The notes: generated from the sequence alone by a model not told the origin. Positions 14,803 to 64,000 are shown, counted from the first letter of the stretch. The stretch: 64,000 nucleotides of DNA from Candidatus Dojkabacteria bacterium (GCA_040006935.1 JBDTVZ010000001.1:18218-82217), one strand, 5' to 3'. Translations and numbers: made by a program.

Positions 14803-16602
14803 TTAATTAGGCTTATAAGCTAAGTTGCCTCCAAGCAATGTTCTAATATCTGTAATTTTATATTTTGCCATCGCCCATCTATCCAGCCCCATTCCAAATG
14901 CATAACCTTGCCATTTACTAGGATCTAATCCACCCATCTTCAAAACATTAGGATGAATAATTCCTGCGCCTCCCATTTCAATCCAACCTCTTCCTTTACA
15001 AATTGCGCAACCTTCACCATGACAGTTAAAGCATCTTAAATCTGGTCCAACTCCTGGTTCAACTTCAGGATAGTATTTACATCTGAATCTTATTTCTACA
15101 TCATCTCCTAAGAAAGTTTTAAACATGTAATTAATAATAGCGAATAATTCAGCCATACTAACCTTCTCTTTCACTGCTGTCATTTGGTATTGATGGAATG
15201 TGAAGTGGTTTGTTCTATTAACTTTCTCATTTCTATAAACTCTTCCTGGCATAACAACTTTGAATGGAGGTTTGAAATCTTCTATAACATGCGCCTCGAT
15301 TGAGGATGTTTGGGTTCTCAATAGAATATTGGGTTCTTCTACAAAAATAGAATCTAATAGATCTCTAGCCGGATGATCCATCGGCAAATTTAGCCTTTGG
15401 AAACTATACTCATCTGTTTCTAACTCCGGTCCATCCATTACGCTAAAACCAATACTTCGAAAAATCGCGTTTAAATCCAGTTCTGTTTGAGTTAAAGGAT
15501 GAAGATGACCTACTTTAGCTTTAGAAAAATTTAATTCTGACTGAGGAATACTTAAGTAACCCTTATTATCAGAATTTTGAATATTTTCTTTTGCCCCATT
15601 AATTAATGCATCGATTGAAGCTTTTAGATTATTAATTGACTGGCCAAAATCTTTTCTTTTATCGTTTGGAACATCTTTAATTGTTTTCATTAATTCAGTT
15701 ACAATACCTTCTTTCCCTAAATACTTTCTCCAAAGATTTGTAAGTTCATCTAATGATGCCGCTTTAGCTACTTCATCATTTACTGTACTTATAATTTCTG
15801 TTTCGTTAACGTATTCAGATTCTACATGTGGCTGTATTTCCTTGACTGTTTTCTCACTCATTTCCTGATTTTTATTAATAGAATAGGACACTTTTAAAGT
15901 ATCTCCTTCTTTTATAATTTCTTCAATAGTAATTCCACCAACTTCAGAAGTTTTTTGCACAATAGTTCCACCATCTGCAAATGACCCAACTCCTTCAAGT
16001 TTCAGCATTCGCAAAGGTTTATTAGAAGGAAGATTTGGTTGTAAATATACTGCTTCTTTAGAAAGCTCATCTAATGTAACAAATCCCCAACTAAATTTTA
16101 AATCTGAGTTTATAAGATCATTTGTAGTGTTTTGAATTTTTTCTTTAAGCTCATTTAAATCACCAACATCTTTTAAAATACTGTATAGGATAAATGGCTT
16201 CTTACCATGATCTGCTTTTAAAGGACTAAGGGAATTAGGAACCAAACCTAATTTCACTAAAGAACAATCAATAATATGTCCTGCAGAATGCATTTTCATG
16301 TTTTGGTACCTTCTTTCCCAATTTATTTCTGCATCAACTTCATCTCCTACTTTTAATTGATTTGTTTTTATACTATGCCAAATTTCTCCATCCTTGATTT
16401 GTACTTGGAAAACTTCAACAAAAGATCCATCGCTAAGCATAAATTTACCTTGATCTGTAGGCTGACCGCCTCCCATAGGGTAAAATACAGTCTTGTCTAA
16501 AATTACTCGCGATTGGTTATCACCTTCTGTAAATACTTCCAAAACTTTAGCTTTGGTAGTTTTTATATATGGTTCTAGAAGGTAGATTGTTTCAGTCTTC
16601 AT
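14803..16602 (-). CDS. pheS: phenylalanine--tRNA ligase alpha subunit with an N-terminal AlaX/tRNA_SAD-like domain
   Basis: 599 aa; the C-terminal 260 aa are a PheS catalytic core (motifs FRSIGF...HPARD, FRCKYYP.EP, GMGLDRWAM); the N-terminal ~240 aa have HSAGH (HxxxH) and a degenerate DGGTIV in place of CGGTHV. Confidence 0.85.
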   Translation of the reverse strand: MKTETIYLLEPYIKTTKAKVLEVFTEGDNQSRVILDKTVFYPMGGGQPTDQGKFMLSDGSFVEVFQVQIKDGEIWHSIKTNQLKVGDEVDAEINWERRYQNMKMHSAGHIIDCSLVKLGLVPNSLSPLKADHGKKPFILYSILKDVGDLNELKEKIQNTTNDLINSDLKFSWGFVTLDELSKEAVYLQPNLPSNKPLRMLKLEGVGSFADGGTIVQKTSEVGGITIEEIIKEGDTLKVSYSINKNQEMSEKTVKEIQPHVESEYVNETEIISTVNDEVAKAASLDELTNLWRKYLGKEGIVTELMKTIKDVPNDKRKDFGQSINNLKASIDALINGAKENIQNSDNKGYLSIPQSELNFSKAKVGHLHPLTQTELDLNAIFRSIGFSVMDGPELETDEYSFQRLNLPMDHPARDLLDSIFVEEPNILLRTQTSSIEAHVIEDFKPPFKVVMPGRVYRNEKVNRTNHFTFHQYQMTAVKEKVSMAELFAIINYMFKTFLGDDVEIRFRCKYYPEVEPGVGPDLRCFNCHGEGCAICKGRGWIEMGGAGIIHPNVLKMGGLDPSKWQGYAFGMGLDRWAMAKYKITDIRTLLGGNLAYKPN

Positions 16603-36622: not shown

Positions 36623-36834
36623 TTAAAAATTAAAAGATTTCTCCTTCAACTATAACAGTATATAGTAAATAGCTGAAAGGATACAATAGGAAATTATTAA
36701 GGACCTATAGCATTAGTCAATAGAAGTTAATCAAAGAATCTAAAAATTTGGGACTGGTTATTTGCCATTGGTTATTATAAGGGTATAATCCTTTAAGCAT
36801 ACCTGATGGCGCAGGTTATTTTTTTAATTTTTAA

Positions 36835-37383
36835 TTGAAATGTATGCCTTCTCCAGAAGAATCAGAAAAATTATTATTAGAATATATACAAAATGAGTCA
36901 TTGTTGAATCATTGCAGAATGGTTGCGAAAGCAATGGGAGCTTATGCAAAATCTTTAAATCTTTCCGAAAATGAAGTAGAGGAATGGTACACAGCAGGAT
37001 TATTACACGACTTAGATTGGGAAAAATTTCCTGATGAACACCCGAATAAGGCTGTAAACGAAATACTTCCAGCAAAAGGTTATCCTGAGAATGTAATTCT
37101 TGCTGTTAAAGCACACGGACCTCAAAGAACTGGTAAATATCCAGAAACTAAAATCGAAAAATACTTATTTGCATGCGATGAACTATCTGGATTTCTAAAT
37201 GCATCGTCCTTAATGAGGCCTACAAAATTCGAAGGTATGGAAGTTAAATCGGTAAAGAAAAAATTAAAAGATAAGCATTTTGCAGCTAATGTAAGCAGAG
37301 AGGATATAGAAGAAGGAGCAAGATTAATTGAGAGACCAATTGAGGAGCATATTCAGTTTTTGATAAATGTGTTTAATAATTAA
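36835..37383 (+). CDS. HD-domain phosphohydrolase
   Basis: 182 aa; YTAGLLHDLDWEKFPDEHP (an H...HD motif) and a further His. Confidence 0.8.
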   Translation: MKCMPSPEESEKLLLEYIQNESLLNHCRMVAKAMGAYAKSLNLSENEVEEWYTAGLLHDLDWEKFPDEHPNKAVNEILPAKGYPENVILAVKAHGPQRTGKYPETKIEKYLFACDELSGFLNASSLMRPTKFEGMEVKSVKKKLKDKHFAANVSREDIEEGARLIERPIEEHIQFLINVFNN

Positions 37384-37392
37384 AACTATTAT

Positions 37393-37462
37393 GGACCGCC
37401 GAACTATTGCGCGAGAATTGGCGGTATGACCTCACCCTAACCCTCTCCTTGAAAGGAGAGGG
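37393..37462 (-). repeat. GC-rich two-hairpin intergenic repeat, copy A (reverse orientation)
   Basis: GGACCGCC-loop-GGCGGTATGACCTCACCC-TAA-CCCTCTCC-TTGAAA-GGAGAGGG; the same stems recur at 46885-46956 and 62216-62288. Confidence 0.8.
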
Positions 37463-37743
37463 AATTGGTCCCTCTTGTAATGACAAGTGCACCTGAGATT
37501 CATAAGGTACACAGATTTACCCTGTCGAAGGCATGGTCTGCGCCCCTGTTATTCGTATGGGGTCCAGCCACCTGCCTGACTGCGCACACAGGCACGGTGA
37601 CTGGACCTTCATTAAGTGCCAAGTTAAAGAGTGTTGTAACATCATGCAGTAATAAACTGCCACGATCAAAAGATGAGGTGGTAAGGTCAACATAAAACTA
37701 AAGCTAATAAATTCGCTAAGATTTATAGCAGTATAGCAATAAC

Positions 37744-37773
37744 AAAAAAAACTGGATTTTACTCCAGTCTTTT
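37744..37773 (-). terminator. bidirectional intrinsic terminator
   Basis: A7-ACTGGA-ttttac-TCCAGT-cTTTT; on the minus strand the hairpin is followed by a U8 run, downstream of the 37791-38156 gene. Confidence 0.65.
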
Positions 37774-45085: not shown

Positions 45086-46837
45086 ATGCGTAAAAAAGAT
45101 TCATCTCAAAAAGATACAACTAAAAAGCAGGATTCAACATTTAAGAATTTCCTACAAACTCTAAAGCCATATACTTTATATTTAGTAATTATCTTGGCGT
45201 TAACAGCTGCTTTGAATAGTTATAACTTAGAAATACCTAAGGTAATTTCTAGGGCTATTGATGCTTACGCAAGAGGTACCTATAATCAAAACACAACTTT
45301 AAACGAGTTTATAGTGATTGTTGCTGCTGTGTTAATACTTTCAATTCTTCAAGTAGTAATTGGAAGTTACACTGCTGAAAGAGTTGCAAAAGATTTAAGA
45401 TTAAAATTATCAAGAAAAATTGCTGGAGGTTCATTTAGATTTGTACAAGATCAAACTTCATCTAAATTATTAACTAATATAACTTCTGATGTAGATGGAG
45501 TTAAAACATTTGTTTCTCAAGCAGCACCAACTTTATTCTCATCCATCTACCTAGCAATTGGAGCTGCGTGGAATATGTTTCAGTTAAATGGAAGTTTAGC
45601 TTTATTCACAATTGCATTTATCCCTGTAATAATTTTTGCATTTACTTATATTTTCGGGAAAATTCAAAAATTATTTACAAAAGGACAGGAAAATATTGAT
45701 GCCTTAAACAAAAAAATATCTGAGACAATCGAAGGAAGTGCATTAATAAGAGTTCTAAATTCACAAAAATACGAAACTGCAAGATTTGATGTTTTAAATA
45801 TAGTTACAAGAGATATAGGGAAAGGAATTCTTACAGGATTTGCGACTATATTCCCTTTAATAGGAGTTCTATTTAATGCAATGATTATTGGAATTATATG
45901 GTTTGGTGGGAATCAAGTTATTACAGGTGATTTATCAATTGGTAATTTTGGAGCATTTTACTCCTATGTTGCTATTTTAATAATGCCCATTATTACCTTA
46001 GGATTCATTAGTACATTAATTTCTAGATCTTTCTCAACATTTGTTAGAGTTTCTAGTGTCCTAAGTTCTAAAGACGAGGGACCTCAAGGAACGATTGTAA
46101 AAGATATTAAAGGTGATATTGAATTTAAGAAAGTACACTTAAAAATAGGTGAAAAAGAAATATTAAAGGATATTAACCTTAAAATTAAAGCTGGTACACG
46201 AAATGCAATAGTTGGACCAACAGCCTCAGGAAAAACTCAATTACTTTATATAATAGCTGGATTAGTGGAGCCAACAGATGGAGAAGTATTAGTTGATGGA
46301 GAAAATATTGAAAAGATAGAACCTAAAAGTCTTTATGGACAAATGGGTATCGTTTTTCAGGACAGCATTATCTTTAATACAACTTTAGAAGAGAATATAG
46401 CATTTAATAGCGAGGTAGATAAAGAATCTACAGATAAAGCAATTAATACAGCAGAGCTTGACGAATTTATTTCCAAACAACCAGAAGGTTTGAAAACGCA
46501 AGTTTCAGAAAGAGGAACAAGCTTATCCGGAGGACAAAAACAGAGATTGACTTTGGCAAGAGCTTTAACTTTAAATCCTAAAATATTACTACTAGACGAC
46601 TTTACTGCGAGAGTGGATCAACGGACAGAAAAATCAATTTCTGATAATCTAGTTAAGAATTATCCTGATACTACAGTTATTTCTATTACACAGAAAGTAA
46701 ATTCAATCACTGATTACGATCAAATATTTTTAATTATGGAAGGAGAATTACTAGCAAGTGGAACTCATCAAGAATTATTAAAGAATAGTTTCGAATATAA
46801 ACAAATTTTTGAATCACAAAAATCAACTGATAGATAA
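45086..46837 (+). CDS. ABC exporter, fused permease-ATPase (MsbA/MdlB-like), partner 1
   Basis: 583 aa; 6 TM helices; Walker A GPTASGKT, signature LSGGQKQR, Walker B LLLDD. Confidence 0.85.
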   Translation: MRKKDSSQKDTTKKQDSTFKNFLQTLKPYTLYLVIILALTAALNSYNLEIPKVISRAIDAYARGTYNQNTTLNEFIVIVAAVLILSILQVVIGSYTAERVAKDLRLKLSRKIAGGSFRFVQDQTSSKLLTNITSDVDGVKTFVSQAAPTLFSSIYLAIGAAWNMFQLNGSLALFTIAFIPVIIFAFTYIFGKIQKLFTKGQENIDALNKKISETIEGSALIRVLNSQKYETARFDVLNIVTRDIGKGILTGFATIFPLIGVLFNAMIIGIIWFGGNQVITGDLSIGNFGAFYSYVAILIMPIITLGFISTLISRSFSTFVRVSSVLSSKDEGPQGTIVKDIKGDIEFKKVHLKIGEKEILKDINLKIKAGTRNAIVGPTASGKTQLLYIIAGLVEPTDGEVLVDGENIEKIEPKSLYGQMGIVFQDSIIFNTTLEENIAFNSEVDKESTDKAINTAELDEFISKQPEGLKTQVSERGTSLSGGQKQRLTLARALTLNPKILLLDDFTARVDQRTEKSISDNLVKNYPDTTVISITQKVNSITDYDQIFLIMEGELLASGTHQELLKNSFEYKQIFESQKSTDR

Positions 46838-46884
46838 GTTTCTCCCCTTCATAAGGGGAGATGGCGAAGCCGAGGGGTTTGGCT

Positions 46885-46956
46885 CCCTCTCCTTTTAAGG
46901 AGAGGGTTGGGGTGAGGTCATACCGCCGCAAAACCACGTACTAGTTAGGGCGGTCC
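46885..46956 (+). repeat. GC-rich two-hairpin intergenic repeat, copy B, preceded by an extra hairpin at 46841-46861
   Basis: CCCTCTCC-TTTTAA-GGAGAGGG-TTG-GGGTGAGGTCATACCGCC-loop-GGGCGGTCC; an upstream TCTCCCCTT-CATAA-GGGGAGA hairpin. Confidence 0.8.
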
Positions 46957-46975
46957 AAATTAATATACAACAAAT

Positions 46976-48742
46976 ATGAGATACAAATTAACTCAAAAAA
47001 AAGAAGGTGAAGTTGAGAAAAAAAGTAATATACTTTCTATCCTTATAGCATTCTCTCCTTTTTTAAGAACAGAGAAATTAAGAATTACCTTAGGCTTTAT
47101 TGCTATTGTAATCAACTCAGCAGTATCCATAGTTGCACCTTTTATTTTAGGATCAGTAATCGATGATTATATTCTTAAGAGAGATGTGGATGGTTTACTA
47201 CGCATTGTACTAGTTTTAATTGCCATGTACGCTGTTGCTTTCGTAACTAGCTACTTGCAAATATATTTAATGGGTATTGTAGGCCAGAACGTATTGTTTA
47301 AATTAAGAGATAAAATATTTAGAAAAATACAATCACTTCCCCTAGAGTTCTTTAACGATAATAAATCCGGAGATTTGATCTCAAGAATTAATAATGATAC
47401 AGACAAGCTAAATCAATTATTTTCAGAAGTTTTAGTAAGGCTTACAGGTAGTGTATTTACAATTGTAGGAATTGGTATTTTTATAATTTTTGTTAATGCA
47501 AAACTTGCCGCTGCTACATTAATTGGAGTTGTAGCCTTGTTTGTTATTACAACACTACTGGGACCGCTAATTAGGAAAGCAAATAAGAAAAGTTTAGATG
47601 CTTTGGGTAATTTCTCAGCGGAAATACAAGAAAGTTTAAGCAACTTTAAAGTTATCATAGCTTTTAATAGAAGAGATTATTTTAAAGAGAAATTTCAAGA
47701 AGCTCAACAGAAGAACTACTTGGCAGCAGTTTGGGCAGCAGTAGCAAATGGAGTAATTGCGCCAATCTATGATTTCGCTGGGAATATTGCTCAATTATTG
47801 ATATTGATTTACGGTATCTACTTAATTGGAACTGGAGAAGTTACAATAGGTTTATTAATAAGTTTTATTTCATATGCCGATAGATTCTATCAACCATTAA
47901 GAATTATGGCTTCTTTAATTGCGACCCTACAGTCTTCTTTGGCAGCATGGACTAGAGTAAATGAAATCTTAACGGCAGAAAGTAATTTAATAGAAGCAGA
48001 CGAAAAAACTATTGATGAGAAGAAATCTATTTTAAAATTCGATAATGTTTCTTTTGGTTATTTAGAAGGGTCAGATGTGCTTAAAGATATAAATATTGAT
48101 TTAGATTACGGTAAAACATACGCATTGGTAGGGCCAACTGGGGGAGGAAAAAGTACATTAGCATCTTTAATTGCAAGACTTTTTGACGCGAGAGCAGGAG
48201 AAATATATTTAGAAGGGAAAAATCTAAAATCTATAGCACCATCAGAAATAGCTAAAGAAATAGGGTTTATTTTACAAGATCCTTACCTGTTTGGTGGTAC
48301 CTTAGCAGACAATATTAAATATGGTAACGATGAGTTGCAAAATCTAAACTCAGAAGAATTAGCAACTAGAATAAAAGAATTAGGCTTAGAGAAAGTTCTA
48401 GAAAGATTCAATTCAGGTTTGGATGTTAAAGTAAGTTCAGATTCTGAAAATATTAGTCTTGGACAAAAGCAACTAATTGCATTCTTAAGAACTATTTTAA
48501 GAAAGCCGAAGTTACTAATATTAGATGAGGCTACTGCCAACATAGATACAATTACTGAGGCACTGCTTGAGGAAATTATTGATAAGCTTCCAAAAGATAC
48601 TACAAAAATTATCATTGCACACAGGCTTAATACCATTAAGAAAGCTGATCAAATCTTCTTTATTGCTAATGGGGAAGTTACACAAGCTAAAAACCTAAAA
48701 GGAGCTGTGGAAATGATTGAAAATGTTAAACGAAGCTCCTAA
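46976..48742 (+). CDS. ABC exporter, fused permease-ATPase, partner 2
   Basis: 588 aa; Walker A GPTGGGKST, a degenerate signature ISLGQKQL, Walker B ILDEAT; probably heterodimeric with the upstream gene. Confidence 0.85.
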   Translation: MRYKLTQKKEGEVEKKSNILSILIAFSPFLRTEKLRITLGFIAIVINSAVSIVAPFILGSVIDDYILKRDVDGLLRIVLVLIAMYAVAFVTSYLQIYLMGIVGQNVLFKLRDKIFRKIQSLPLEFFNDNKSGDLISRINNDTDKLNQLFSEVLVRLTGSVFTIVGIGIFIIFVNAKLAAATLIGVVALFVITTLLGPLIRKANKKSLDALGNFSAEIQESLSNFKVIIAFNRRDYFKEKFQEAQQKNYLAAVWAAVANGVIAPIYDFAGNIAQLLILIYGIYLIGTGEVTIGLLISFISYADRFYQPLRIMASLIATLQSSLAAWTRVNEILTAESNLIEADEKTIDEKKSILKFDNVSFGYLEGSDVLKDINIDLDYGKTYALVGPTGGGKSTLASLIARLFDARAGEIYLEGKNLKSIAPSEIAKEIGFILQDPYLFGGTLADNIKYGNDELQNLNSEELATRIKELGLEKVLERFNSGLDVKVSSDSENISLGQKQLIAFLRTILRKPKLLILDEATANIDTITEALLEEIIDKLPKDTTKIIIAHRLNTIKKADQIFFIANGEVTQAKNLKGAVEMIENVKRSS

Positions 48743-49007
48743 ATCTACAATTGTCATTGCGAGCGAACGAAGTGAGCGTGGCAATCCCGTATTAAAAGCA
48801 AATCTATTAAAGATACACGACGAAATCTGTATGGCAGGCAGGTTAAAAAGAGGGGAATGAATAACAACTCATAGCAATAACACTTTTCATTATTTGAAAA
48901 TTAAATACTGATTATTTGTCAGTGGTTATTATAAAAACCTATAACATTTTTTTTCTTGCAGTCTGTTTACGAATTTATTAAACTGGACTCATTTGGTAAA
49001 TTTTTCT

Positions 49008-54592: not shown

Positions 54593-54725
54593 TACTATTA
54601 TGGTAAATGTTTGATTATAGCAAAAAGAGAAATCTTGAAAAAGAAATTCCTAAATTCTTAATCTTTGCCTTTATCTTAATTCTTAGAATTTAGATAAAGA
54701 ATTGAGTATTAGAATTAAGAAGAAT

Positions 54726-54969
54726 AGCAGGTAGGGGGAATCGAACCCCCCTCATCAGTTTGCCTGCCCGCCTAAGGTAAAGTCAGGTTGCAATAAAGAA
54801 TGTGAATACAGCGGGTAGAGGGAATCGAACCCTCCTCTTCAGTTTGGAAAACTGACATAATAACCGATATACTATACCCGCTGTATTCACACTAATTATT
54901 TTTAATACCAGTTAAGTTTACTATGGCAGGCGGGGGAAACTGGCATAATAACCGATATACTATACCTGC
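54726..54969 (-). tRNA. tRNA-Gly(CCC)-like gene split in the anticodon loop: 5' exon 54969-54934, 173-nt insert 54933-54761, 3' exon 54760-54726 (minus strand)
   Basis: Minus-strand halves: GCAGGTA-TA-GTAT-ATCGGTTA-TTAT-G-CCAGT-TTCCC | insert | AA-ACTGA-TGAG-GGGGG-TTCGATT-CCCCC-TACCTGC. The acceptor pairs perfectly (GCAGGTA/TACCTGC). The discriminator is U. The T-arm is canonical. The anticodon stem has a C27.A43 mismatch. Confidence 0.5.
54810..54881 (-). tRNA. tRNA-Gly(UCC), complete, inside the insert of the split tRNA
   Basis: Minus strand GCGGGTA-TA-GTAT-ATCGGTTA-TTAT-G-TCAGT-TTTCCAA-ACTGA-AGAG-GAGGG-TTCGATT-CCCTC-TACCCGC-T. The anticodon is UCC and the discriminator is U73, as expected for Gly. 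The D-arm is identical to that of the outer tRNA. Leader TGTGAATACA and trailer TGTATTCACA form a perfect 10-bp extension of the acceptor helix. Confidence 0.8.
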
Positions 54970-55588
54970 ATTAATTACTCCACAATTATAGCAAGTAACT
55001 CAAAATTTTCAAGAATAACAATAATGGCTATGCTACTCATAAACCGACATTTTGAAAAGGCCGTGCCACCTCCTATTCAGTTTTCCGTCAAACTTTAGCG
55101 ACACATCGAATTATCGTTACCAGGTAAGCACTTAGATGTATTCTGATGATTGACAAAAGTATATTTCTGTTATATAATTAAATAGTTAAAAATCAATTAC
55201 AGATCGCGTGTTTACAAGACGGGATGGTCAAGGGAAAGTACGTGAGTCCCAAAACAACCACAAAACTCCCCAACCCTAGTTAATAGTTAAAAATTAATAG
55301 TTAAAAGAAGGAAATATCTTCTTGTTCAATTTCAATAAATGGTTATTAATAGTGCACTTAACTCTTCACTATTAAATCTTAACTATTTATGGGCATTGAA
55401 CCATCTTATTTTCGTAAGAATTTAAGACTCATGCTTAATTCTACTTTATTGTAGAAGAACCTTAAAAACTCAAAAGAAGAAATTCTTTTGGGTTTCGTGA
55501 TTAACAATACACATGCTAACGCTGTGTGTTAATTGCAAAAACCCAATAGAAAGCTTAATAATTCGATTTAACTCTAGTTTACAACTGG

Positions 55589-61456: not shown

Positions 61457-62134
61457 TTATCTAATCAAAGTGGCATAGACAATTATCCTTTCTGGTGAAT
61501 AATAATCTATACATGTGTACATTATTAAGTCTGCTAATTTTGAGACATGATTAGAAGTCTCAATTGCATTAACCTGATACCTATATTGTTTACCATTCCA
61601 ATTTATTGTGACTATTTCTCCACCTTTTAATTGATCGAATTCCGTGAATAAGTTGGCATTTCTCCAATCCCAAGATATGTTATTTTCACCCCATCTATGA
61701 GCTGCGAGAACAATAGGTAGCTCATTATTGTCTGGAGTACCATAATTCGGATCTCTCCAAACACCTGCAGCTAAAGCAGCCTCTTGGTTTGTAGATTCGT
61801 AGATTGTTGTATTTATTTTGATTCCGCTTACTTGTACAGTAGCACCTGTAGTAGTTACCGTATTCCCTACGACAAACTGTAATGGTTTTACCTTAGTTTC
61901 ATTAACAACTGTAGCTGTAAATGGATCTTTAAAGGTATATTTTGGAGTAGGTTTTACATCTGATTGTGCAAAAATAGCTGTTGATAGGATTTTATCTTCT
62001 TTTTGAGCCTCAAAAACATTAGTTTCAGCTTTAGGTGCAAAATTGATAAAAGACAAGAAAGCTATCGGGATTATCATCAGAATAATTCCGATCAAAATAT
62101 TTATATTGGCAAAGGTTTTTAGCACTTTTTTCAT
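61457..62134 (-). CDS. sortase-family transpeptidase
   Basis: 225 aa; N-terminal TM; catalytic His in LAAHR, Cys in LIMYTCID (TLxTC-like), and a C-terminal Arg (RIIVYATLIR). Confidence 0.75.
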   Translation of the reverse strand: MKKVLKTFANINILIGIILMIIPIAFLSFINFAPKAETNVFEAQKEDKILSTAIFAQSDVKPTPKYTFKDPFTATVVNETKVKPLQFVVGNTVTTTGATVQVSGIKINTTIYESTNQEAALAAGVWRDPNYGTPDNNELPIVLAAHRWGENNISWDWRNANLFTEFDQLKGGEIVTINWNGKQYRYQVNAIETSNHVSKLADLIMYTCIDYYSPERIIVYATLIR

Positions 62135-62215: not shown

Positions 62216-62288
62216 CCCTCTCCTTTCAAGGAGAGGGCTAGGGTGAGGTCATACCGCCCCAAAACCATGACATACATCTGGGCGGTCC
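62216..62288 (+). repeat. GC-rich two-hairpin intergenic repeat, copy C
   Basis: CCCTCTCC-TTTCAA-GGAGAGGG-CTA-GGGTGAGGTCATACCGCC-loop-GGGCGGTCC; hairpin 2 is identical to copy A. Confidence 0.8.
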
Positions 62289-62313: not shown

Positions 62314-63543
62314 TTACCGCCTTAACTCTAAATCTCTCAAACTAAATCTTAAGTTTAGTATATTCAAGAATAAGAAAAGTATATTAGCTAGAAGTAACAA
62401 AATCGGAAGTAATGAAATCCCAAATATATTTATTAAAAGTACTGAAAGCACTAGGAACGAAATACTTTGAATTAAAGCAGCATTTCTATATCTATTTTCG
62501 AAACCTAAAGCCATTAAAGCCGATAATATAGGTGAAGTAACAATGTAGATCAAAACACCCCCAAGAATAGGGTAAAAGTACTGTAAGCCATTATCTGCAA
62601 TTTCCTGGTTATAGACAATTCTTAGGGCTAACCCAGCTAGAGGAATACTTAAAAGGAAGATTGCGACACAGAATGCAGATAATATTTTTATATACCTAAA
62701 CATCGACTCAACAAGCTCTTTCATTTTACCCTGCGCAACTAAGTGACTAAATTCCGGTAAGAGTTTCGTTTGTAATATTACGGATAGCACTATTGGTACA
62801 GTTGCCAAAGTACTTACAGATTTATAAATTCCGTTTTCATAATTACCAGCATAGTTGGTCACAAGTATTGAATCCCATTGTCCCATAATCACATAGGCCA
62901 TTATAGAAATTAATACATTTGCTGCAAAAATAACAAAGCGCTTATCGTATTTAGCTTTTGAAAAGTCTATTAGCTTATCTTTAAATAACTTTTGAAGAGG
63001 AATTATTGAGAATAAGAGCCAAGCAAAGGCTCTACTTAATAGGAAAGCATTTATTACATCTGTGATTTTCAAGAAGTATAGAACAAAAGTAAGTCCAATA
63101 AATATTAATGAAGAAATTGTAAAGTAGAGACTGGTTCGAAAATCGTCTCTAAGTCCATTAAAAATGAGAATAAATACGTTGCTCGCAGAAAATATTAGTA
63201 TTAAAGCCATTTGCCAACCATAACCGAAGGAGATTCTATAACCAGTAGCCCAATCAAGTAGTAGAAACAAAACTCCACCAATTAAAACTAGCACAATCTC
63301 TGCATAAACCGAGAACGAAATTCTCTCAACTCTGTCTGTATTTTGAGCAACAAACTTTTGAGCAGCTTCTGGTAAGCCAAAATCCGTTAAAACTCCAACA
63401 ATAGTAATCAAAGCAATAAAGTAATTTAATAATCCTATCTCGTCTGTACGAGCAAATTTACTCAATACAAAAAGAATAATTACGGGACTTGTGCTTGATA
63501 GTACTCGAGAGATTCCGGGAAGAACAGATTTTATAAATTTCAT
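62314..63543 (-). CDS. MOP-superfamily polysaccharide flippase (Wzx-like)
   Basis: 409 aa; ~12 TM helices; length and topology typical of polysaccharide biosynthesis transporters. Confidence 0.7.
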   Translation of the reverse strand: MKFIKSVLPGISRVLSSTSPVIILFVLSKFARTDEIGLLNYFIALITIVGVLTDFGLPEAAQKFVAQNTDRVERISFSVYAEIVLVLIGGVLFLLLDWATGYRISFGYGWQMALILIFSASNVFILIFNGLRDDFRTSLYFTISSLIFIGLTFVLYFLKITDVINAFLLSRAFAWLLFSIIPLQKLFKDKLIDFSKAKYDKRFVIFAANVLISIMAYVIMGQWDSILVTNYAGNYENGIYKSVSTLATVPIVLSVILQTKLLPEFSHLVAQGKMKELVESMFRYIKILSAFCVAIFLLSIPLAGLALRIVYNQEIADNGLQYFYPILGGVLIYIVTSPILSALMALGFENRYRNAALIQSISFLVLSVLLINIFGISLLPILLLLANILFLFLNILNLRFSLRDLELRR

Positions 63544-63672
63544 ATGTTTTAAGTTAAATAAGCTGCTTAATTATATATGAACCTCGAGGGAAGAGCTAGA
63601 AGGAAGATGTCATTCGTAGGGTCCGTCGATCGACGAACCTAGAGATTCATATTCATATGCAAAGCTAAACAA

Positions 63673-63754
63673 GGACCGCACAAAGAAATATCCTGCTTTC
63701 GGTGCGGTAGAAACCCCTCCGGCTACACCACCTCCCCTTTGATCAAAGGGGAGG
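63673..63754 (-). repeat. diverged member of the two-hairpin repeat family, copy D
   Basis: GGACCGCAC-loop-GTGCGGTA...CCTCCCCTTT-GATC-AAAGGGGAGG: the same architecture with different stems. Confidence 0.4.
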
Positions 63755-63861
63755 GTGGGTGGAGTTAGTTATTCTCAACCCTTAATCACAAAATCCATTT
63801 TCTCATTCCTTCATTTTTCTGATAGAATATTTTTGCACAATAACTTTTACTAAATTCCTCA

Positions 63862-64000
63862 ATGGGAAAATTAAATTCTCTTTTTAATCCTAAAAGTGTA
63901 GCAATAGTCGGAGTTTCCGAAGATCCCGCAAAATTAGGTTCCGTAATGCTTTCTAATTTGAACGAAGGCAAATATAAAGGTGAAATCTACCCTGTAAATC
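63862..64000 (+). CDS. partial CDS (5' end): CoA-binding domain protein / NDP-forming acyl-CoA synthetase N-terminus
   Basis: MGKLNSLFNPKSVAIVGVSEDPAKLGSVMLSNLNEGKYKGEIYPVNP matches the CoA-binding Rossmann N-terminus of the SucD/ACS-alpha family; it runs off the window end; the antisense ORF 63786-63971 was rejected. Confidence 0.7.
   Translation, partial: MGKLNSLFNPKSVAIVGVSEDPAKLGSVMLSNLNEGKYKGEIYPVN

Follow-up and report, generated by a model that had tools for sequence, protein, structure and literature searches.

What are the GC-rich, structured segments that occupy several short spacers of an AT-rich genome of Candidatus Dojkabacteria, a bacterium of the Candidate Phyla Radiation (CPR), one of them lying between the two genes of a probable ABC exporter? 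We analysed a 64,000-nucleotide stretch of this genome, assembled from a metagenome (GCA_040006935.1, JBDTVZ010000001.1:18218-82217; hereafter the window), for which a reading of the sequence alone (hereafter the sequence-only reading) had proposed a dispersed family of GC-rich intergenic repeats, each with two hairpins joined by a linker, in four copies that are here called A to D. All four were recovered with the positions and orientations given by that reading, A, B and C being near-identical and D diverged, and all four are intergenic. The linker together with the second hairpin of each unit probably represents the potential intrastrand triplex motif known as BoxC, PIT or TM_ECO in Escherichia coli, with a general mode of action that would be REP-like and at the level of DNA, and every full unit of the window carries in addition a GC hairpin of its own.

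The repeat family is real. In the window the 18-mer GGCGGTATGACCTCACCC is present three times, against not once in 100 shuffles, and the pattern GGACCGC-N15-30-GCGGT occurs four times against an expectation of zero. A repeat finder paired A, B and C in alignments of 44-53 nt that are 92-98% identical, and a 45-nt stretch is 95-98% identical among these three copies whereas the loops beside it drift. When a covariance model was made from the four copies, it scored them at 70-100 bits and, run with filters off, detected no other full-length copy in the 64 kb. Both hairpins are predicted to form as RNA, stable on either strand, and as single-stranded DNA (ssDNA), where the z-scores range from -3.1 to -4.3. 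The GC content of the copies was measured at 56-58%, lower than the roughly 65% of the sequence-only reading and set against 32.2% for the window. The copies examined number four or five, and all come from this single window.

Three-arm architecture and identity of the repeat

Read on the G-rich strand, the blocks of a unit follow one another as pyrimidine arm (Y), loop, purine arm (R), short loop and G-rich mirror segment (RH), which we call module 1, and then hairpin 1, which we call module 2; in A to C this series is CCCTCTCCT - 4 nt - AGGAGAGGG - 3 nt - GGGTGAGGT - CAT - ACCGCC - 19-22 nt - GGCGGT. The Watson-Crick pairing of Y with R is perfect in all four copies. The linker GGTATGACCTCACCC, which had been described as joining two hairpins, contains GGGTGAGGT on the other strand and is the third, or mirror, strand. 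When GGGTGAGGT is reversed it matches the purine arm with G opposite G and with A or T opposite A, which is the rule of the antiparallel purine-motif triple helix. With G*G-C, A*A-T and T*A-T as the accepted triads and with the third arm antiparallel to the purine arm, the rule holds at 27/27 positions in A to C and at 10/10 in D, that is, at 37/37 positions on the G-rich strand, while on the C strand the pyrimidine-motif rule fails at 7/37 (our own count from the same sequences). A finder for triplex motifs made of a Y arm, an R arm and a mirror arm reported exactly five places in the 64 kb and none in 20 block-shuffled windows. ViennaRNA predicted the two hairpins only and left the mirror strand unpaired.

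The fifth place, designated B-extra, accounts for an extra hairpin that the sequence-only reading had placed in copy B at 46841-46861; this hairpin is real, and it is in fact part of a second triplex motif, of the D type (CTCCCCTT / AAGGGGAG / GAGGGGTT). No inverted pairs of a type A and a type B motif were present within the window. Hairpin 1 starts 2-3 nt 3' of the mirror arm in every full unit (A to D). Its stem comprises 6-7 bp (ACCGCC/GGCGGT) rather than the 8 bp implied by the earlier GGACCGCC/GGCGGTCC, and its loop measures 19-22 nt instead of 19-21 nt. The stem is invariant save for one compensated pair, the closing pair of D, which is altered on both sides from C-G to A-T, and the loop is AT-rich and mostly free to vary. 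The stems are identical among A to C. The loops of B, C and D, which had earlier been called different, are diverged but can be aligned and have a CAAAACCA-like 5' part in common, and are thus not unrelated.

A text search of the literature with 19-mers of the element led to Holder et al. 2015 (PMC4666352), since the 19-mer GGAGAGGGTTAGGGTGAGG, taken from the reverse complement of copy A, is identical to a stretch of the E. coli type A motif TM_ECO in Table 1 of that paper. There, TM_ECO is treated as identical with the BoxC of the 1990s and with Hoyne and Maher's PIT elements; 23 copies from E. coli K-12 are tabulated (e.g., CCCTCTCCCTTGAGGGAGAGGGTTAGGGTGAGGGT), and the pattern CCCTCNCCC-N3-6-GGGNGAGGG-N3-GGGNGAGGG is given together with 3610 copies in 262 proteobacterial genomes, related GC-rich motifs being abundant in cyanobacteria (PMC4666352). 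BoxC was described elsewhere as a 56-bp repeat with 32 copies (Petrillo et al. 2008, PMC2267715). According to PMC4666352, the E. coli motif is always intergenic, shows no strand bias and no functional gene association, forms a stable triplex in vitro when its strand is isolated as ssDNA, and marks loci that are more rearranged among strains than control loci. The later literature adds a G-quadruplex reading and an archaeal analogue, but no function.

The exact published pattern is not matched in the window. Copies A to C read CCCTCTCCT-N4-AGGAGAGGG-N3-GGGTGAGGT, in which eight of nine triads are identical to those of E. coli type A and the ninth is T-A*T instead of C-G*G, a change coordinated in all three arms, and because of this one triad the published regular expression misses them. 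In copy D the stem differs in sequence and the second loop is 10 nt long. A to C fall within the limits of ITxF (loops of 1-6 nt, stems of 6-15 nt, at most one mismatch), their 9-nt stems being free of mismatches and their loops measuring 4 and 3 nt, while D and B-extra exceed the loop limit with second loops of 10-11 nt. The traits of the BoxC type are otherwise present in the window: intergenic position, both orientations, five motifs in 64 kb, identical stems in A to C and variable loops. That the strand actually folds into a triplex would follow from the pairing rules and from the published biophysics on the E. coli variant.

Three-way covariation and distribution of the two modules

The relation among the three arms was examined beyond the window in perfect 8-bp pyrimidine/purine hairpins from 2.0 Mb of fetched loci, restricted to types not fixed by the search patterns. 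A perfect 8/8 mirror segment lay within 12 nt on the 3' side in 65/255 of these hairpins and in 0/255 control windows located 400 nt away; in the same set the antiparallel rule was met 64 times and the parallel rule 9 times. The third arm follows the purine arm by type, for example GGAGAGGG occurring with GGGTGAGG, GGAGAAGG with GGATGAGG, and GGAGGGGA with AGGGG[TA]GG. Within the window, D likewise departs from A to C coordinately in all three arms (CCTCCCCTTT / AAAGGGGAGG / GGAGGGGTTT). The three-strand rule is thus shown to be met in all copies and to covary across sequence types. Since a mirror relation cannot arise by template copying, this covariation points to a three-stranded fold that is under constraint. 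According to Holder et al. (PMC4666352), RNA does not form purine-motif triplexes, and this, together with a rule that is perfect on the G strand, favours a structure at the DNA level. The variants keep the complement-plus-mirror relation even where they have no potential for a G-quadruplex, which speaks for the triplex fold on the G-rich DNA strand being what is conserved.

Outside the window, every match consisted of module 1 only. The collections were scanned with exact patterns, so that the numbers of matches given are minimum values with a bias towards the canonical stem. The pattern GGTATGACCTCACCCNNNCCCTCTCC matched two species representatives, neither of them with hairpin 1; the linker-plus-arm pattern appeared in a Gottesmanbacteria metagenome-assembled genome (MAG) as an inverted motif pair joined by the same GGT-ATG-ACC junction, and in a truncated form in a Bacteroidota MAG. 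Among the viral contigs of IMG/VR, 31 carried one pattern and at least 120 a looser one (35-66% GC); the motifs were mostly intergenic, and some contigs held many copies. Examples are a 15-kb contig with nine model hits (L033) and an 11-kb contig with 17 perfect motifs (L106), L021 and L076 being rich as well, and in several motif-rich IMG/VR contigs all motifs lie on one strand. In metagenomes the relaxed pattern GCGGTNNNNCCTCACCC... was found in at least 120 contigs, mostly GC-rich. By blastn, 4276/5426 complete E. coli genomes matched copy A in its module-1 part only, the match spanning positions 43-83 of copy A and no more. Plasmids contributed 293 records, from enterobacteria, Azospirillum, Aeromonas and cyanobacteria, and only three records of cultured phages carried the motif. 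There was no clear sense or antisense bias of the motif relative to flanking open reading frames (ORFs) among 343 motifs, judged from crude ORF calls.

Hairpin 1 behaves differently. The full architecture GGACCGC-N15-30-GCGGTATGACCTCACCC had no match in the metagenomes, and the occurrences of GCGGT near relaxed-pattern matches there reflect chance or GC-rich context, not hairpin 1. An ACCGC...GCGGT hairpin follows the motif in 4/4 units of the window compared to 3/351 motifs elsewhere, and a hairpin directly 3' of the mirror arm was rejected as a general feature, given that its stem-length distribution in the 351 motifs outside the window equals that of the control. Among everything searched, hairpin 1 is confined to the window and is a lineage-specific module of a mosaic repeat. 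Absence elsewhere, which the sequence-only reading had named as counting against its proposal, has a split answer: the triplex module is extremely widespread, and the full two-hairpin architecture was not found outside the window.

Table 1. Positions of the units and of their parts in the window (Y, pyrimidine arm; R, purine arm; RH, G-rich mirror segment).
Feature	Position	Strand	Parts and pairing
Copy A	37393-37462	- (G-rich strand = minus)	Y/R Watson-Crick pairing perfect; 9/9 purine-motif triads; 6/6 hairpin-1 pairs
Copy A, module 1		-	Y CCCTCTCCT 37462-37454; loop TTCA; R AGGAGAGGG 37449-37441; loop TTA; RH GGGTGAGGT 37437-37429
Copy A, hairpin 1		-	joint CAT; arms ACCGCC 37425-37420 / GGCGGT 37400-37395; loop 19 nt
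B-extra	46841-46879	+	second, type-2 triplex motif without hairpin 1; 8/8 triads
B-extra, arms		+	Y CTCCCCTT 46842-46849; loop CAT; R AAGGGGAG 46853-46860
B-extra, third arm		+	11-nt loop ATGGCGAAGCC (GCGAAGC inside); RH GAGGGGTT 46872-46879
Copy B	46885-46956	+	9/9 triads
Copy B, module 1		+	Y CCCTCTCCT 46885-46893; loop TTTA; R AGGAGAGGG 46898-46906; loop TTG; RH GGGTGAGGT 46910-46918
Copy B, hairpin 1		+	joint CAT; arms ACCGCC 46922-46927 / GGCGGT 46949-46954; loop 21 nt
Copy B, G-strand 34-mer			CCCTCTCCTTTTAAGGAGAGGGTTGGGGTGAGGT
Copy C	62216-62288	+	9/9 triads
Copy C, module 1		+	Y CCCTCTCCT 62216-62224; loop TTCA; R AGGAGAGGG 62229-62237; loop CTA; RH GGGTGAGGT 62241-62249
Copy C, hairpin 1		+	joint CAT; arms ACCGCC(C) 62253-62259 / (G)GGCGGT 62280-62286; loop 20 nt
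Copy D	63673-63767	-	diverged, type-2 motif; 10/10 triads on minus strand
Copy D, module 1		-	Y CCTCCCCTTT 63754-63745; loop GATC; R AAAGGGGAGG 63740-63731; 10-nt loop; RH GGAGGGGTTT 63720-63711
Copy D, hairpin 1		-	joint CT; arms ACCGCA(C) 63708-63702 / (G)TGCGGT 63681-63675
Copy D, plus-strand G-rich mirror segment	63758-63764	+	GGTGGAG; weaker (6/7)

Gene context and competing explanations

The gene context of the four copies is as the sequence-only reading described it. Copy A starts 10 nt past the stop of an HD-domain gene (36835-37383, +), and copy C separates the stop of a polysaccharide-synthesis gene (62314-63543, -) from the start of a sortase gene (61457-62134, -), A and C having the same orientation relative to the upstream gene. 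Copy B occupies, inverted, the 138-nt spacer between ABC1 (45086-46837) and ABC2 (46976-48742), the two cistrons of a probable heterodimeric ABC exporter; B-extra starts 4 nt past the stop codon of ABC1 (46835-46837), and B-extra, B and hairpin 1 together make up the spacer. The spacer that holds copy D (63544-63862) is divergent, and the copy is placed upstream of a promoter-like site at 63800-63828. ABC1 and ABC2 overlap in the two nearest relatives, where the best ABC2 homologue is 56% identical, by 20 and 59 nt (L003 8287-11773 and L005 8326-11809), and these ABC loci (39-41% GC) contain no triplex motif in 21 kb each. Genes that overlap in the relatives and stand 138 nt apart around copy B here fit an insertion into the operon, and from this place inside the operon it follows that strong termination by the unit is excluded in that orientation. 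Upstream of ABC2, no sequence resembling a Shine-Dalgarno site can be seen. A comparable exchange exists in the gldA-yijF spacer of E. coli, where 641 genomes have an inverted BoxC pair and most others a REP/BIME cassette with identical flanks, indicating that the two behave as alternative cassettes at one site; the cassettes (L153, L274, L275) share the same position directly after the gldA terminator hairpin.

Taken together, these data suggest the following model. Each unit would be a mosaic non-coding DNA repeat of the Dojkabacteria genome, composed of module 1 (a 9-10 nt Y arm, a 4-nt loop, the R arm, a 3-10 nt loop and the G-rich mirror segment) and of module 2, a lineage-specific GC hairpin of 6-7 bp with an AT-rich loop of 19-22 nt that begins 2-3 nt after module 1. 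When the G-rich strand becomes single-stranded, as it may do transiently during replication, transcription or DNA uptake, its hairpin would take the third strand into the major groove as a purine-motif triple helix. The unit would work at the DNA level as a REP-like structured insert, essentially selfish or neutral, with insertion or tolerance limited to the short spacers just past stop codons of a compact genome, and selection or biased retention would act on the three-strand fold and not on an RNA or protein product. Once folded, the unit could stall polymerases and raise local rearrangement, as was reported for E. coli, and is therefore likely to be a source of local stalling and rearrangement rather than a regulator.

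Several signals that might have given the units another role were looked for. The units occur in either orientation and are shown to carry neither a promoter signature nor a classical terminator signature: no consensus promoter site lies within them, D being located upstream of the promoter-like site of its neighbour, and, in agreement with the sequence-only reading, a scan with terminator rules found no U-tract, only the second hairpin of C (tail AACTTCTTCT) passing a loose rule. No Rfam family matched at the elements, either at gathering thresholds or at E <= 5, and the foot of hairpin 1 bears neither GTAG nor CGTC, the tags of REP. The main rival is an element acting in RNA, in which two hairpins in a 3' untranslated region or between cistrons shield the upstream mRNA from 3' exonucleases or tune operon expression, like E. 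coli REP. We regard this as unlikely, although it would account for copies (A, B-extra/B and C) that start 4-25 nt past stop codons, for hairpins that are stable as RNA on either strand, for the position of B between the two exporter cistrons and for the terminator-like hairpin of C. It does not sit well with the inversion of B relative to A and C or with D, whose spacer is divergent and which is located upstream of the promoter-like site of its neighbour. A plain hairpin role also leaves the invariant unpaired mirror strand and its covariation with the purine arm unexplained, and it is only as a purine motif, which RNA does not form (Holder et al., PMC4666352), that the rule holds at every position. 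The PIT elements of E. coli (Hoyne and Maher 2000/2002) showed no terminator or promoter activity, as cited in PMC4666352, and the present organism uses ordinary U-tract terminators, e.g., at 37773-37746 (-). The same observations, namely the empty Rfam search, the occurrence in both orientations, the copy upstream of a promoter-like site and a three-strand rule that is perfect only on the G-rich DNA strand, give no support to the small structured RNA family or attenuator considered by the sequence-only reading.

Recognition of the sequence itself by a protein (a nucleoid protein, topoisomerase, recombinase or the DNA-uptake machinery), with the stems and the supposed linker read as duplex, would agree with the 45 nt that stay 95-98% identical in A to C beside drifting loops, with copies that are independent of orientation and with a core that is near-identical across phyla. 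We consider such a site quite improbable, because many types elsewhere differ in sequence yet keep the complement-plus-mirror relation, which indicates a structural constraint and not one recognition sequence; D, too, keeps the architecture with a different sequence, and no candidate binding protein is known for BoxC (PMC4666352). Of the options that the sequence-only reading had offered, REP-like is the nearest and MITE-like fails. A MITE (miniature inverted-repeat transposable element) or REPIN, mobilised in trans by a transposase or by a RAYT (REP-associated tyrosine transposase) whose gene lies elsewhere in the genome, would be dispersed and intergenic, as these copies are, and could explain the insertion-like copy B between genes that overlap in relatives as well as the alternation of BoxC and REP cassettes at one E. 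coli site. It is nevertheless very improbable: terminal inverted repeats are absent, the unit ends GGACCGCC and GGAGAGGGA being neither inverted repeats nor complementary, and so are target-site duplications, the flanks of A to D sharing no direct repeat. The sequences that border hairpin 1 (5', TATGG/TTTGG/CAAGG; 3', ATGA/AGAA) lack the tags mentioned above, no transposase or RAYT (Y1-like) domain was present among the 38 window ORFs scanned, and in E. coli the motif is associated neither with mobile elements nor with phages (PMC4666352). For the same sequence in E. coli, Kaplan et al. 2016 proposed a switch between G-quadruplex and hairpin; there the motif GGGAGAGGGTTAGGGTGAGGG has four GGG tracts and formed a G-quadruplex in vitro. 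Such a switch requires four tracts of three or more G, separated by loops of 1-7 nt. In A to C (AGGAGAGGG-NNN-GGGTGAGGT) the outer tracts are only GG and just two tracts have three or more G, with the triplex rule fully kept; the ninth triad, T-A*T, removes the outer GGG tracts and makes a three-tetrad G-quadruplex impossible, so that on its sequence this reading appears largely refuted for A to C and is extremely improbable overall.

Some points weigh against the triplex-based DNA repeat that we favour. No function is demonstrated for the BoxC/PIT family in any organism, and hairpin 1 is left without an explanation by the model. The triplex of E. coli was detected neither in double-stranded DNA nor by in vivo dimethyl sulfate (DMS) footprinting (PMC4666352). 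The copies are few and come from a single window, and three of four lie directly after stop codons, a position also compatible with a role at mRNA 3' ends. The perfect identity of the stems in A to C could come from recent copying and not from selection, but the heavily diverged loops of hairpin 1 argue against very recent copying. The identity of the core across phyla could likewise be convergence, not common descent or transfer. A more far-reaching possibility, which we judge doubtful, is that the triplex module is a promiscuous element acting through ssDNA and moving between phyla (E. coli, CPR, viral contigs), its fold being recognised by the machinery that copies or retains it, with hairpin 1 as an adaptor for machinery of Dojkabacteria, e.g., DNA uptake, replication restart or a structure-specific nuclease. 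If this were true, the covariation of the mirror strand would be the first evolutionary, rather than biophysical, evidence of a DNA triple helix selected in vivo.

Other features were observed around the copies and elsewhere in the window. Beside copy A and between convergent genes, a 280-nt non-coding stretch (37465-37745, locally 64% GC) includes a near-perfect 47-nt hairpin (~37561-37607) and has no Rfam match, no convincing ORF and weak z-scores (-1.1 and -1.9). A 238-nt GC-rich stretch beside A was rejected as part of the element: it shares no sequence with the other copies, folds weakly (z-scores of -1.1 and -1.9) and lacks a convincing ORF. At 48753-48790, 11 nt past the ABC2 stop, there is a GC-rich imperfect palindrome, GTCATTGCGAGCGAACGAAGTGAGCGTGGCAATCC, which resembles the GC-rich palindromes beside the motif in a Gottesmanbacteria locus (L001, 2650-2710) and may be a second repeat family, and a perfect GC-rich palindrome, GGTCCGTCGATCGACGAACC, lies at 63615-63644 in the divergent spacer of copy D. 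A 43-nt AT-rich direct repeat (36738-36780 and 48892-48934; 79% identical, ...ACTG.TTATTTG.CA.TGGTTATTATAA) precedes the HD-domain gene and pyrG by ~55-59 nt, and may be a common promoter or operator. At 54722-54978 (-), a tRNA-Gly(UCC) gene (54809-54882) is nested in an apparent tRNA-Gly(CCC) gene, whose anticodon loop is split by ~170 nt bounded by the complementary GCCTGCCCGCC / GGCAGGCGGG; ARAGORN calls the tRNA-Gly(CCC) after in silico removal of this ~170-nt insert, and the arrangement could be a tRNA intron that carries a tRNA or the scar of a duplication. Finally, a single ORF at 14803-16602 (-) fuses an AlaX-type alanyl-tRNA editing domain with the alpha subunit of phenylalanyl-tRNA synthetase, which is unusual.

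Comparison with known systems

An archaeal analogue is provided by the G-rich plus C-rich repeats of Methanomicrobiaceae (PMC8044849), which are intergenic, combine a GC hairpin with an adjacent G-rich strand and can form an antiparallel intramolecular triplex in vitro; they differ from the present units in the C-rich tract 3' of the G-rich part, in sequence and in their potential for a G-quadruplex (PMC8044849). REP, BIME and REPIN elements resemble the units as short GC-rich palindromic intergenic repeats that are mosaic and often located just past stop codons. However, there is no sequence similarity, they have no third mirror strand, which is what defines the units described here, and REP/REPIN are by definition imperfect palindromes of 20-40 bp with a conserved GTAG or CGTC tag, which the units lack, and they go together with a RAYT gene in the genome that REPs usually flank. 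MITEs such as Correia/NEMIS, RUP and ERIC are similarly small, dispersed, structured and intergenic and may sit inside operons, but they have the terminal inverted repeats and target-site duplications that are missing here. GC-rich two-hairpin units in the spacers of AT-rich genomes also exist in mitochondria, as the double-hairpin elements of Allomyces and the GC clusters of yeast, which are unrelated in sequence and host, and to our knowledge no mirror strand of the triplex type has been described for either of them.

The closest relative of the units is BoxC/PIT/TM_ECO, with which they share the block order, stems of 9 nt, a second loop of 3 nt and the GGAGAGGGTTAGGGTGAGG core of type A, as well as conserved stems with variable loops and a strictly intergenic position in either orientation. 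The core belongs to an already described family, and the finding is therefore not categorically new; BoxC/PIT repeats have been known since the 1990s without an assigned function, and the present variant does not reveal one. The novelty lies in the CPR host, in the T-A*T variant, in the hairpin 1 fused to the motif and in the evidence from covariation. In contrast to the proteobacterial and cyanobacterial carriers that have been catalogued, the host is a streamlined CPR bacterium with 32% GC, and its possession of the core, together with that of many viral contigs, lies far outside the known range. In practice, such GC islands in AT-rich CPR genomes call for caution in annotation, being repeats instead of terminators or genes for RNA. 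With T-A*T and not C-G*G as its ninth triad, this variant has lost the G3 tracts at both ends. It offers a cleaner test of triplex against G-quadruplex, and, unlike in E. coli BoxC, every full unit carries an extra 3' hairpin (ACCGCN...NGCGGT), which provides a handle for finding the partner machinery.

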